Source of the DNA: a virus
Length of the DNA: 64,000 bases
Virus record (IMG/VR): IMGVR_UViG_3300044816_000098
Coordinates: 32,001-96,000 of that record
Strand: one strand, 5' to 3'
Shown: positions 3,667 through 29,975 of the stretch, in pieces
Layout of the letters: each line of letters begins with the position of its first letter
How positions within the stretch are numbered: position 1 is the stretch's first letter
Notes under the pieces: model-generated
What the model was told of the DNA's origin: nothing
Database searches by the model: none
Seen by the model: the letters and a program-made list of their open reading frames with translations, nothing else
Translations under genes and position numbers: made by a program

Positions 3667-4283
3667 TCTTCCTTCCGGGTGAATACGTAGAGGTCGGGCA
3701 CGCCAAGCTGAACACCGGGGACGTCATCCTCTACGGCCGCGAGCCCCACCTGATCGTGCGCAAGGACCACCTCGGTGCCGGGCCCAAGCTGCGGATGCAG
3801 AACCTGTCCAGCCGCAAGGTCCTGGAGATCTTCCCCAAGTCGTACACGCGCCTCAAGCGCCTGCGCGCCCCCAGGAAGCACCAGGACGGCAAGGTCTGGA
3901 CGATGGCCTGCGGAGACGTGGTGCTGTACCCCGCCACGAGGAGCGCCCCGCCGGAGGTGGCGATCCGTCACATCCACGGCTGGTACTCCTCCGGGGGTTC
4001 GCCGGTGGTCCGGGCCGACGTCCACATCTTCAAGGCGCTGACCTCGAATACCGCCCTGGCGGTAAGGAATTCGCATCTGTTGAACGCTGTACCTATCCGC
4101 CGCCCGCACCGCATCGGTACGGTGGCGGCCGTCCGGAGCCTGAAAGTGCGGGAACCGACGGCCTGGGTCTGCGTGGGGCGGAACCTGTGGCGCTCGACCA
4201 GTGGGGTCGAAGCGTCGGACCTGATGATCGAGTTCGAATTGCAGCGCGGGATGTACGCGCTGCTCTACGAACCGGACGCGTAG
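3663..4283 (+). CDS. hypothetical protein
   Basis: GTGA overlap with upstream gene. Confidence 0.65.
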   Translation: MIFLPGEYVEVGHAKLNTGDVILYGREPHLIVRKDHLGAGPKLRMQNLSSRKVLEIFPKSYTRLKRLRAPRKHQDGKVWTMACGDVVLYPATRSAPPEVAIRHIHGWYSSGGSPVVRADVHIFKALTSNTALAVRNSHLLNAVPIRRPHRIGTVAAVRSLKVREPTAWVCVGRNLWRSTSGVEASDLMIEFELQRGMYALLYEPDA

Positions 4284-4294
4284 GAGGAGACCAG

Positions 4295-4753
4295 ATGATA
4301 GCCACCCCGATATACGACCAGATGCTCGCCGAGCGCGGGGGACGGCCGCCGGGCGGTCTGGCCGAGGAGGACTTCACCGCGCTGCTGTTGCCGCCGCCGG
4401 TCGAACTGCCGGTGGCGGACCCCGAGGACGAGACGGCCCTGATCACCGAGGCGTCGAGCCTCCTGCCCGCCGAGGTCGAGCGGGTGGTCCTGGTGAAGGC
4501 CCCCAAGGCGCCGGTGGACGATAACGCCGCGCCGGACGAATGCCTGGACTCGGAACTGTGCACCAAGGCGGACCCCTGCCCCGTCTGCGGCCCGGAGGAG
4601 TACGACCCGGACCCGGAGGAGACCCAGGAGATGAAAACCCCGGAGAACCCCCCTCAGGCCCCGCCGAAGGTGTCCGAGAAGAAGGTCTCCTCCCCGGCCG
4701 CCGGTCGTGTCCGCACCAGGACCCGCACCGGCGTCGTGAACGGCAAGAAGTAA
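4295..4753 (+). CDS. hypothetical protein
   Basis: AGGAGGAG RBS; MIATPIYDQMLAERG start. Confidence 0.75.
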   Translation: MIATPIYDQMLAERGGRPPGGLAEEDFTALLLPPPVELPVADPEDETALITEASSLLPAEVERVVLVKAPKAPVDDNAAPDECLDSELCTKADPCPVCGPEEYDPDPEETQEMKTPENPPQAPPKVSEKKVSSPAAGRVRTRTRTGVVNGKK

Positions 4754-24263: not shown

Positions 24264-24848
24264 ATGGGTAATCAGCTCAAGGTCCAGCTCACCCTCACCG
24301 GCACCGCACCGATCCTCATGCACAACGCGCGGCTGGCGGACCCGCTGGACAGCTACACCAAAATGCTCAAGGTGGTGTCATCCAAGCGGACCAAGACCGA
24401 CGACGACCACGAGGAGATGGCCCGCGTCGAGTTCCTTGGGGGCCTGTACTGCGACGACGTCATGGGTCCGTACATCCCGGGCGTCAACCTCCACCAGTGC
24501 CTGATCGAGGGAGCCAAGCTCACCCGGCGCGGTCGGCACGTGGAGCGCGGCGTGGTGGTCATGGAGGAACAGCTCCTCCTCGCATACAGCGGCCCCCGCA
24601 CGCCGGACGAGCTGTACGCGGACAAAAACTTCCGCTCGCGGCTCTCGGTGGGTGTCACCACCTCCCGCGTCATGCGGACCCGCCCGAAGTTCTCCTCGTG
24701 GGCCCTGGAGGCCAACCTCGTCGTGGACACCGGGCAGCTCGACCTCAACGACATCAACGAGATCAGCGAGACGGCCGGGATGATGATCGGCCTGGGCGAC
24801 TACCGCCCGCGCTACGGCCGGTTCGATGTCGTGGTGACGGAACTCTGA
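24264..24848 (+). CDS. minimal Cas7/RAMP-like RNA-binding protein (Vipr-like effector)
   Basis: LTLTGTAPILMH, PYIPGVNLHQCL and Gly-loop GLGDYRPRYGRF match RAMP hallmarks; immediately followed by GGY-NN arrays. Confidence 0.8.
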   Translation: MGNQLKVQLTLTGTAPILMHNARLADPLDSYTKMLKVVSSKRTKTDDDHEEMARVEFLGGLYCDDVMGPYIPGVNLHQCLIEGAKLTRRGRHVERGVVVMEEQLLLAYSGPRTPDELYADKNFRSRLSVGVTTSRVMRTRPKFSSWALEANLVVDTGQLDLNDINEISETAGMMIGLGDYRPRYGRFDVVVTEL

Positions 24849-25279
24849 CGTTCAGGGCAAGGCATGGCAAGGCTCGGTAGAGCTGGGCCAGGCTGGTCAA
24901 GGCAGGGTTCCCCATCAGGGCTTCACGGCGCTAGTGGGGGCGTTCAAGGCGGGGCGTGGCAAGGCACGGTACGGCACGGCGGGGCAAGGCAGGGTTCCCC
25001 TTCAGGATTTAAAAGTCCTGGAGGGGGCGCTCTGGGCGAGGCTTGACGGGGCTGGGTATGGCCAGGTCTGGCGGGGAAAGGCAAGGCAGGGTTCCCCTCC
25101 TCAGGATCACACCTGAGGAGGGGGCTTTGAGGCGGGGCATGGGCAGGACCAGGCGGGGCGCGGTGTGGCCGTGTAGGGCACGGCGTGGCAGGGTTCTTCT
25201 CCCTCTGGGTCAGACCAGGGGAGAGGGCAATCAAGGCGCGGCACGGCGCGGTTAGGCAAGGCAAGGCATGGCAGGGATC
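24849..25279 (+). ncRNA. guide-like array A: five GGY-NN pentamer tracts separated by hairpins
   Basis: Tracts start at 24856, 24948, 25035, 25131, 25235; the first four end GGCAG-GGTTC plus a GC hairpin, the fifth ends GGCAG-GGATC. Confidence 0.85.
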
Positions 25280-25302: not shown

Positions 25303-25881
25303 ATGAAGAAGTTCGAGGCCGAGGACCAACAGCCTCGGTGGGCACGGGTCTACAACGGCATCCGCGCCCTGAAGACCGGTGAGGCGGCCACCTATCACCA
25401 GCTCAGCGAGTGGGCAGGGGTGGATGTCACCGGGACCAACAGGGCCTGCGTCTACGAGGCGATCCGGTTCTTGCAGCGCAAGGACCACCGGACGCTCGCC
25501 TGTATCCCCACGGTGGGCTACATGGTGGTTCCGGCCAGTGCTCACGAGGATCTCGCCAAGAAGCACAACAAGAAGGCGGGTCGTCAGCTCCGCGAGGCCA
25601 TCGGCAAGGTCCAGTCGGCTGACCGGAACTACCTGACCCCGGCCGAGGCCCGGCGGATGGATTCCATGGAGGTGGACCTCTCCCGGCAGAGGCACATGAT
25701 CATCGGCCTGAGTCGGCGACTCGACAGGACCGAGACCGCCATCAAGGAGGCCCGCCAGCGCGACCGCGAGGCCAAGGGCACCATCGCTCAGCTCTCCGAG
25801 GAGAAGGACGCTCTGGCCACCGAGGTGCGCGAGCGCCTGGCGCGCCTGGAGCAGGTCCTCCTGGACCGCACGGCGGCCTGA
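25303..25881 (+). CDS. accessory protein: wHTH-like N-terminus plus coiled coil
   Basis: ATYHQLSEWAG..VYEAIRFL..PTVGYMVV then heptad-rich C-terminus; AGGAGG RBS; lies between the arrays. Confidence 0.75.
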   Translation: MKKFEAEDQQPRWARVYNGIRALKTGEAATYHQLSEWAGVDVTGTNRACVYEAIRFLQRKDHRTLACIPTVGYMVVPASAHEDLAKKHNKKAGRQLREAIGKVQSADRNYLTPAEARRMDSMEVDLSRQRHMIIGLSRRLDRTETAIKEARQRDREAKGTIAQLSEEKDALATEVRERLARLEQVLLDRTAA

Positions 25882-25889
25882 TCCCCAGA

Positions 25890-26136
25890 CTTCTTGGGCA
25901 CGGCTCGGCTCGGTAGGGCCAGGCGTGGCACGGCAAGGCGCGGCAGGGTTCCCGCCCTGGGGATCACACCTCAGGGCGGGGCGTTCCGTGGCAAGGCAAC
26001 GCAAGGCGGGCCGGGGCGCGGTGGGGCAAGGTACGGCTTGGCATGGCGAGGTTCCCCACCAGCACTTCACGGTGCTGGTGGGGGCGTTCAGGGTTAGGCA
26101 GGGCTGGGCTGGACAAGGTAAGGCAGGACATGGGAG
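25890..26136 (+). ncRNA. guide-like array B: three GGY-NN pentamer tracts
   Basis: Tracts start at 25897, 25990, 26092; hairpins at 25951-25980 and 26054-26083. Confidence 0.85.
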
Positions 26137-26173
26137 GAGACCCCGCAGGTCAGATGACTTGCGGGGTCTCTTC
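26137..26173 (+). terminator. terminator hairpin closing the array operon
   Basis: GAGACCCCGCAGGTCA-GA-TGACTTGCGGGGTCTC-TTC. Confidence 0.7.
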
Positions 26174-28392: not shown

Positions 28393-28557
28393 ATGAACCA
28401 CTACGGATCTCTGGCACACACCGGTGTGGGCCTGACCATCGCTGGGGTGGTGCTCGACCAGACCTGGCTGATCACCGCTTCTGTGGCCCTGGTCGTGCTC
28501 GGTGCCCTGGTCGTGCGCGTCACCTTCCGCCGCAACCGCACCGTGGACAGCATCTGA
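28393..28557 (+). CDS. 54-aa peptide with LAxTG-like motif, hydrophobic segment and basic tail (not in ORF track)
   Basis: MNHYGSLAHTGVGLTIAG..VRVTFRRNR; GAGGAG RBS; TGATG coupling to the GT2 gene. Confidence 0.7.
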   Translation: MNHYGSLAHTGVGLTIAGVVLDQTWLITASVALVVLGALVVRVTFRRNRTVDSI

Positions 28558-29975
28558 TGGCCGCTGTACCCACTGCGACGTTCGCGGGACCTGGACGGGT
28601 CGCAGCACTGACGCTCATACCTCTGGTGGGCTTCATCGCCTGGGGGATCTACCACGCGCTGGCCGTGACCCAGGCGTTCGAGGGACACGGCAACAAACTC
28701 GCCACCGCGTGGGCTGTGTCCTTCCTGCTGCTGTGGTGGGTACCGGTCGCGTGGAGAGAGAAGCCCCTCACCGCGACACCTCGCCAGCAGAAGGCGCTGG
28801 ACCGACTCTTCGTCACCGTGCAGATCCCGGCCTACAACGAGGAGGAGAACGCTCTTCGCCAGTGCATCCAGTCGCTCTTCGACCAGACCCGGCTTCCGAA
28901 CCGGATCCACGTGGTGGACGACGGCTCGGTGGACAAGGCCCAGGGCGTCCCGATCACCTACGACGCGGTGAAGGACTGGTTCCTGACCACGGCGTGGGAC
29001 CTGGGGATCGAGGCCACCTGGGTGCGTACGGTGAACCGGGGCAAGCGGCACGCCCAGATGGAGGTCCTGACGGACGATGACGGGGACATCTTCGTCACCC
29101 TGGACAGTGACTCCGTTCTGGACCGCCAGGCGCTCAGAGAGGGCCTCAAGCCCTTTGCCGACCCCAAGGTGATGTCGGTCGCGGGCATGGTCGTGGTGCT
29201 CAACAGCCGGGACAACCTGCTGACGTTCATGACGAGCATGCTGTACCTGCCCTTCACCCGGGGATTCCGCTCCGCACAGTCGGTGCTGAAGCGGGTCATG
29301 GTGAACTCGGGGACGCTGGCGTTCTACCGGGGAGACGTGGTGCGCAAGCACGCGGGCTCGTACGAGAACGAGAGCTTCCGTGGCAAGCCCATGCAGATGA
29401 ACGACGACTCCATGCTGACCTTCTACGCGATGCTGGAGGGGGACACCGTCCACCAGCCGTCGGCTATCTGCTTCACGCTGGCGCCGGTGAAGGTCAAGCA
29501 CTACCTGAACCAGCAGTTCCGCTGGATGCGGGGGACCTTCGTCCGCACCTTCTGGTGGTTCCGGTACCTGTCGCCCACGAGCATCGCGTGGTGGATGCCG
29601 GTTATGGAGATGGCGCAGCTCCTGCTGTCGCTGATCATCCCGATCGCGCTCATCACGGATCCGGCCCAGGCCGGGAACATGTGGAACCTGGTCCAGTCGA
29701 CCATCTGGGTGGGGCTCGGGGTCAACTACGTGATCGCCCTGAGGTTCTTCTCCATCGACCGGACGGACGAGTCCTTCTGGTTCCGCATGGCGCTGTTCCT
29801 CACCTCGCCCCTGACGGGCATCTGGCGCCTGCTGGTGCTGCGTCCCATGTACTTCTACGCTCTCGCCACCTGCTGGAAGGTCGGCAAGTGGGGGACGCGG
29901 GAGACCGTCGAGGTCGGTATGGCCCCGGTGGATCAGCCCGTCGTACCGCTCGACAAGATCAACACCAACGCCTGA
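28557..29975 (+). CDS. processive GT2 glycosyltransferase (hyaluronan synthase/NodC-like)
   Basis: PAYNE, DDGS, NRGKRHAQ, DSD, NDD, QQFRW; TM helices at both ends. Confidence 0.9.
   Translation: MAAVPTATFAGPGRVAALTLIPLVGFIAWGIYHALAVTQAFEGHGNKLATAWAVSFLLLWWVPVAWREKPLTATPRQQKALDRLFVTVQIPAYNEEENALRQCIQSLFDQTRLPNRIHVVDDGSVDKAQGVPITYDAVKDWFLTTAWDLGIEATWVRTVNRGKRHAQMEVLTDDDGDIFVTLDSDSVLDRQALREGLKPFADPKVMSVAGMVVVLNSRDNLLTFMTSMLYLPFTRGFRSAQSVLKRVMVNSGTLAFYRGDVVRKHAGSYENESFRGKPMQMNDDSMLTFYAMLEGDTVHQPSAICFTLAPVKVKHYLNQQFRWMRGTFVRTFWWFRYLSPTSIAWWMPVMEMAQLLLSLIIPIALITDPAQAGNMWNLVQSTIWVGLGVNYVIALRFFSIDRTDESFWFRMALFLTSPLTGIWRLLVLRPMYFYALATCWKVGKWGTRETVEVGMAPVDQPVVPLDKINTNA

Follow-up and report, generated by a model that had tools for sequence, protein, structure and literature searches.

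Intergenic DNA beside a pair of small genes in a virus genome contains runs of pentamers in which a fixed triplet is followed by two free bases. One of these runs, termed B2, raises the question of whether its free bases specify a target and, if so, which one. A first-pass annotation proposed that they do, and that the target is the ParA-type Walker A motif, read with every third base skipped. The sequence analyzed (the window) is a stretch of 64,000 nucleotides from a 154,156-bp virus record with 65.6% GC and direct terminal repeats. The carrier is a large GC-rich phage and probably an actinophage. No relative of the region around B2 (the vipr region), nor of three long open reading frames, was found in the phage collection. 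Among the sequencing runs listed as sharing sequence words there is no RNA run, and soil metagenome runs contain only small shares of these words.

The VIPR locus

VIPR, known from preprints of 2026 (bioRxiv 10.64898/2026.04.26.720920 and.720927; 10.64898/2026.10.15.759431), is a system similar to CRISPR that uses RNA guides to silence genes. In a VIPR locus, vrRNA genes of 9–16 tandem GGY-NN units flank vipr on its strand, GGY is constant and NN hypervariable among relatives, and each guide is capped by a structured, invariant 3′ tail. According to these, the Vipr protein polymerizes on RNAs (vrRNAs) made of GGY-NN repeats, and the NN pairs base-pair with double-stranded DNA, each third target base being skipped. 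Natural targets are mostly coding sequences, where the skip falls on the wobble base. The outcome is that competing mobile elements are transcriptionally silenced; no PAM is needed, and guides spare their own genome at a match of at least 80%. The worked examples are from enterobacterial and Pseudomonas phages (2026 VIPR preprints).

The features of the locus, in window positions, are as follows.

24264..24848, + strand: vipr gene, 194 aa, RAMP-type protein (PDB 36pp_D, phrog_4652)
24856..25274, + strand: vrRNA array A, five GGY-NN guide units, found by phase-locked pentamer scans and parsing (A1 24856-24910; A2 24948-24997; A3 25035-25094; A4 25142-25196; A5 25235-25274, all + strand)
25303..25881, + strand: candidate vap (vipr-accessory) gene, 192 aa, between arrays A and B (position, phrog_5926)
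25897..25951, + strand: vrRNA unit B1, 11 units with the GGTTC end counted, then a hairpin
25990..26054, + strand: vrRNA unit B2, 12 guide units and the conserved GGTTC unit
26053..26084, + strand: 3′ tail hairpin of B2, 14-bp stem and 4-nt loop (RNA fold)
26092..26136, + strand: vrRNA unit B3, 7–9 units, partly degenerate
26137..26173, + strand: hairpin of GC-rich sequence that closes array B, with a T-rich stretch after it; likely the terminator of the locus (read from the sequence)

The 194-aa protein matches PDB entry 36pp_D, “SUSP1 Vipr protein”, with an E-value of 2.6e-34 over 184 aligned residues (positions 8–191), and phrog_4652 with 1.8e-57; no Pfam family was found for it. Residues H17, K33, R39, K82, R138, D177 and R179 of SUSP1 are kept, and two positions are substituted (W178 to Y, K88 to R). 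In SUSP1 Vipr, H17, D177 and R138 recognize the two guanines, K33 contacts the backbone at the skipped base, and R39 and K82 clamp the non-target strand (2026 VIPR preprints). Because of the match to PDB 36pp and the conservation of residues that contact RNA and DNA, the locus is identified as a VIPR system. Three other candidate explanations of the pentamer arrays were dropped after this match: a TRAP-like ring-protein binding array or RNA sponge, G-quadruplex or R-loop tracts, and Rho-utilization sites on the antisense strand.

The Vipr sequence is ~36% identical to homologs in Felix O1-like phages (Felixounavirus). GGY-NN arrays flank the Vipr homologs of Gordonia, Mycobacterium, Pseudomonas and Felix O1-like phages as well. 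In phages LittleE (L014) and Medea1 (L015) the vipr and accessory pair is moron-like and lies within the tail-gene region, so that the whole module changes its place in the genome in one piece.

The position of the 192-aa open reading frame fits the published vipr-vap layout. Its sequence matches phrog_5926 (4.5e-5) and displays a weak similarity (E-value = 0.004) to a gene annotated “DNA binding protein” that follows vipr in Gordonia phage MakoManhole; no match was found in PDB or Pfam. Elsewhere in the window (positions 28557–29975) the phage encodes a 472-aa family 2 glycosyltransferase (Pfam Glycos_transf_2, E-value = 1.4e-17).

The two intergenic arrays (24856–25274 and 25897–26136) flank this 192-aa gene downstream of the 194-aa vipr and comprise eight units of 7–13 pentamers each, all on the + strand. 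GGTTC and a hairpin of 12–14 bp stand at the end of A1–A4, B1 and B2. A5 has no tail and continues directly into the ribosome binding site of the candidate accessory gene; thus it may act as a leader element and not be released as a guide. The whole genome has 13 GGY-NN units (8 local and 5 distant), all co-oriented with the local genes, and five first-order Markov shuffles of the genome have none, so that the arrays are beyond chance. The distant units, at genome positions 151052–151397 (− strand, four units, near the right genome end) and 111498–111557 (− strand, one unit), resemble the “solo vrRNAs” of a published study (bioRxiv 10.64898/2026.10.15.759431). Rfam shows no family matching these RNAs. 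None of the guides of at least 9 units has a self-target with ≥80% NN identity in the phage's own genome, where the best site for B2 is 16/24. The locus is a new VIPR example, with tails that are plain hairpins and with an array between vipr and the candidate accessory gene.

Guide B2 and its ortholog in a sister phage

Positions 25990–26049 consist of 12 in-phase pentamers, each a fixed triplet and then two free bases. The NN string is AA AA AA GG GG GC GG AA AC TT AT GA, exactly as read in the first-pass annotation. The triplets are GGC or GGT in 10 of the 12 units, the degenerate ones being unit 3 (CGC) and unit 5 (GCC). GGTTC follows at positions 26050–26054, and then the 14-bp hairpin (26053–26084); the fold of the segment 25983–26092 has a minimum free energy of −54.8 kcal/mol (z = −3.07).

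When the NN pairs are written as NNx codons, units 3–9 are compatible with K-G-G-A-G-K-T and the first nine units, termed the nine-unit core, with N-N-K-G-G-A-G-K-T. Both degenerate triplets fall within this core. The annotation had further proposed a gapped NN-x code with its gap on the wobble base, serving to silence competing mobile elements. The code is the same as the published 1-nt-skip rule, and the proposed use agrees with published VIPR biology. The mechanism is therefore confirmed, but it is already in print as VIPR; what is new relative to the published work is the ParA target of B2, which is partly supported.

A sister phage (locus L017, from which 11 guides were parsed) encodes a Vipr that is 92% identical. 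Its GGY triplets and tails are kept, and its NN pairs are different in most units. Of the eight guides it shares only A4, A5 and B2; the NN strings of the remaining ones are entirely different. In the B2 ortholog the first nine NN pairs are identical and give N-N-K-G-G-A-G-K-T, with differences in units 10 and 12; the stem of the tail hairpin shows compensatory changes. B2 in guide spacing was not found in other IMG/VR phages, where three matches are attributable to chance and have no GGY triplets.

Resemblance of B2 to the ParA Walker A motif

The six motif codons that had been reported to agree hold up against shuffled controls. Compatibility with KGGxGK[ST] in any of the 13 guides and in either orientation has a chance probability of 1.6e-4 when NN pairs are shuffled across guides, and 9e-4 when the shuffling is confined to B2. 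A null that takes duplication into account gives 4.1e-4. The same annotation had also “decoded” other guides into looser motifs, which imposes a look-elsewhere cost: with ~50 (a few dozen) candidate motifs allowed for, the chance value is estimated at ~1%–2%. No resemblance to Walker A was found among 73 other guides parsed from other VIPR loci.

The nine-unit core fixes 18 bases, for which ~17 matches are expected (an estimate) in random sequence of the size of the species genomes. At least 120 were found in the species genomes, and at least 50 of these are ParA-like by phmmer among the matches listed. At loci with a GC content of ≥0.60, 30 of 41 core matches are ParA-like among the matches listed. 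In IMG/VR there are 26 core matches (21 of them ParA-like) versus 5 viral contigs for a permuted control. The matched genes that were checked as examples are true AAA_31/CbiA proteins by Pfam. Codon position 3 varies in the core matches and positions 1 and 2 are fixed, among the matches listed. The Walker A reading is partly supported: the nine-unit core matches in-frame ParA-family genes above a permuted control, and the full guide has no near-perfect match in a plausible host element.

Actinobacterial contexts resembling plasmids and AICEs are among the matches. One matched gene (20/24 NN) is on a conjugative-plasmid-like Pseudonocardia contig that also encodes a Tn3 transposase and a TraG/VirD4 coupling protein. 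Another (20/24 NN) has GntR and FtsK/TraB-like genes as neighbors in a GC-rich provirus record of 127 kb. Two GC-rich genomes reach 21/24 NN to B2 among the matches listed. Among Nonomuraea genomes the core site is present in 6 of 61 (reversed control, 0), a patchy distribution as expected for an accessory gene. The phage's own genome has no ParA/CbiA gene, and this, together with the lack of a self-target, is consistent with an outward-directed guide.

The provirus record (G406, L225–L231) has at ~58–66 kb an AICE-like module consisting of ParA, a GntR-family regulator and an FtsK/TraB-like ATPase, adjoined by true phage genes (portal, prohead protease, RecT). The record may represent two adjacent mobile elements merged into one call. 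Guide A4 was considered as a reader of the GntR recognition helix and was rejected, its best fit on the GntR gene beside ParA in this record being 12–13/20.

Search for full-length targets

The search that had been suggested for the full pattern, in which a Streptomyces host was assumed, was carried out with 11 units (unit 10 being allowed as TC also, as in L017). It gave 0 matches in 185,579 species genomes and 0 in IMG/VR. In metagenomes it gave 44 matches, 43 of them copies of one in-frame gene on marine contigs of ~49% GC. The N-terminus of this gene is M-C-F-A-N-N-K-G-G-A-G-K-T-F-M, and these are the sole 23/24 matches to B2. They were rejected as a target: the contigs carry ubiquitin hydrolase and cyclophilin genes and are picoeukaryotic, and hence cannot be the target of this phage. 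They show only that some of nature's many ParA-like genes fit the flanks by chance. The gene on these contigs (L023–L066) encodes a ~430-aa ParA/CbiA-family ATPase with its Walker A motif at the extreme N-terminus; it is conserved in these contigs, which are abundant, and is found beside a UBP-type ubiquitin hydrolase gene.

For the full 12-unit B2, no site within 3 mismatches is present in 401 sampled Actinomycetes genomes. The best GC-rich matches, among the matches listed, are 20–21/24, and this is the chance level for the last three units when the nine-unit core is fixed. On 122 ParA-bearing loci taken from genomes, and on the 127-kb provirus over its whole length, no guide other than B2, from this phage or from L017, scores above shuffled controls. 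Exact NNx patterns of three other guides have 0 matches in IMG/VR.

These results bear on the explanation that B2 is a working guide whose resemblance to Walker A is coincidental, its real target being elsewhere (in another register or in non-coding DNA) in an element outside the collections searched. Such a coincidence would account for the lack of a near-perfect full-length match in a plausible host element (185,579 species genomes, IMG/VR and 401 Actinomycetes genomes), for the chance-level fit of the last three units to the ParA matches listed, and for the failure of the guides to converge on ParA-bearing loci; the looser decodings of other guides point the same way. Since three other guides are likewise without an exact IMG/VR match, the relevant competitor may be unsampled. 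Against it, the six fixed codons extend to nine units that correspond to a real actinobacterial ParA subfamily, the chance probability is 1.6e-4 to 9e-4 before correction, and L017 conserves exactly those nine units. A coincidental resemblance is considered rather unlikely.

A further explanation sees in B2 a unit that is in decay or has no activity, or a decoy; it would have been kept by descent and not as an active silencer, its degenerate GGY triplets preventing a complete Vipr filament. Units 3 (CGC) and 5 (GCC) do deviate from GGY, and changes to GGY abolished silencing in SUSP1 (2026 VIPR preprints); in addition, NN pairs among the final three units (the 10th and 12th) differ between the phage and L017. 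Internal degeneracy is, however, frequent in natural vrRNAs according to the VIPR authors (2026 VIPR preprints). The GGTTC end of B2 is also intact, as is its tail hairpin, in which L017 shows compensatory changes, and its nine NN pairs were conserved while neighboring guides turned over. This explanation is considered improbable.

The canonical actinobacterial Soj/ParA motif is N-Q-K-G-G-V-G-K-T-T-T, which by count agrees with B2 at ~18/24. That B2 targets a host chromosomal parA/soj gene and disturbs chromosome segregation during infection, an option left open in the first-pass annotation, is very improbable: although some matching ParA genes (Actinomycetospora) lie among metabolic genes and not in obvious mobile elements, the canonical motif is under the 80% rule, no site within 3 mismatches is found in the 401 Actinomycetes genomes, and the matching ParA does not belong to the core genes, as just 6 of 61 genomes of Nonomuraea have it.

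Proposed mechanism and significance

The best available reading, and one that on sequence grounds is judged somewhat probable, is that B2 is a VIPR guide aimed at the ParA-type P-loop. In this reading, B2 is a guide (vrRNA) belonging to the VIPR system that the phage encodes. By homology with SUSP1, Vipr subunits are predicted to polymerize on the RNA, one per pentamer, burying each GGY and presenting each NN pair. The filament would then pair with double-stranded DNA with every third target base skipped, and transcription would be blocked. In the codons for N-N-K-G-G-A-G-K-T, and in three less certain codons after them, B2 would read positions 1 and 2; this sequence would be the N-terminal deviant Walker A motif (P-loop) of a ParA/MinD-family ATPase. 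A partition or positioning ATPase gene is the most likely target, and its carrier would be a competing plasmid, AICE-like element or prophage of a presumably actinobacterial host.

Since the guide would read an invariant catalytic motif only at those positions that determine the amino acid, it alone could cover many synonymous variants, and escape by the target would damage the ATPase. Tentatively, B2 may even be broad-spectrum, silencing a whole family of partition ATPase genes in actinobacterial plasmids, AICEs or phage-plasmids. Nine perfect units are not too short for a target, because the natural functional footprint in SUSP1, which is experimentally supported, is six units with a match of ~89% (2026 VIPR preprints).

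With this locus, VIPR is extended to a carrier that is large, GC-rich and probably an actinophage, and to tails of a different form. If B2 is indeed broad-spectrum, no natural VIPR guide directed at a universal catalytic motif would precede it, and it would give a first indication that VIPR serves in conflicts between phages and plasmids and not just against phages and satellites. If the ParA reading holds, guides can be aimed at protein motifs common to many unrelated elements, which implies a wider ecological role (phage versus plasmid or AICE) and offers ideas for motif-level programmable silencing. Should it fail, what is left is a new and clean, though ordinary, instance of VIPR. A guide for the ParA P-loop is a concrete prediction that is cheap to test.

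tRNA-like tails in related phages

A third form of tail, neither hairpin nor pseudoknot, was observed in Gordonia phages Trine and MakoManhole and Mycobacterium phage LittleE (loci L013:3625-3870, L014:2659-2950 and 4145-4510, and L012:2597-2800). Each GGY-NN guide of these phages has a tail with a GGTTCGANTCC stem-loop that is similar to a tRNA T-arm, and an acceptor-like stem. ARAGORN calls one such tail an odd tRNA, and an Rfam search of the tails found nothing. The main VIPR preprint mentions hammerhead-interspersed arrays and not tRNA-like tails (2026). These tails could be processing signals for RNase P and RNase Z.

Comparison with known systems

The closest known system is the type II VIPR of SUSP1, consisting of Vipr, Vap1 and vrRNAs (bioRxiv 10.64898/2026.04.26.720920 and.720927; PDB 36pp). 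The two Vipr proteins are homologous, with conserved GGY-binding and DNA-clamping residues. In both loci the protein genes are flanked by vrRNAs of 9–13 GGY-NN units, each vrRNA has a structured 3′ tail, there is no self-targeting, and the NNx reading falls on codon positions 1 and 2 of a coding sequence, which for B2 is a predicted one. Next to vipr there is a small accessory gene in SUSP1 and a candidate for one here. The tails here, unlike the pseudoknot of SUSP1, are plain GC hairpins after GGTTC. A five-unit array between vipr and the candidate accessory gene, a candidate accessory protein with no detectable match to a solved structure, and a carrier of 154 kb with 65.6% GC and direct terminal repeats are further differences from SUSP1.

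SUSP1 vrRNA4, directed against the recombinase of the F5 satellite (bioRxiv 10.64898/2026.10.15.759431), offers a parallel to B2. It also reads the invariant, amino-acid-determining bases of a catalytic core; the skipped bases are on wobble positions, so that no synonymous escape is available to its target. Experiments established which element vrRNA4 targets, how infection is affected and what counter-measures exist, whereas the target class of B2 is deduced from sequence. The target of B2 would be the partition gene of a plasmid or AICE, and that of vrRNA4 is a satellite recombinase.

The backbone of Class 1 CRISPR, formed by Cas7 and crRNA, is likewise made of RAMP-fold subunits that polymerize on a guide RNA, with a thumb that breaks pairing periodically. 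The period in VIPR is 5 nt of guide versus 3 nt of target, and for Cas7 it is 6 versus 6. Unlike Class 1 CRISPR, the locus has no repeat-spacer arrays and no adaptation genes, and the guide is encoded directly as tandem pentamers.

Binding sites of TRAP, the trp RNA-binding attenuation protein, consist of 11 GAG/UAG triplets with spacers of 2–3 nt. The arrays here are similar in that 10–12 triplets, with two free bases between them, are present on one RNA strand. They differ from TRAP sites in that the protein is a Vipr homolog and that the free dinucleotides carry information and are not spacers.
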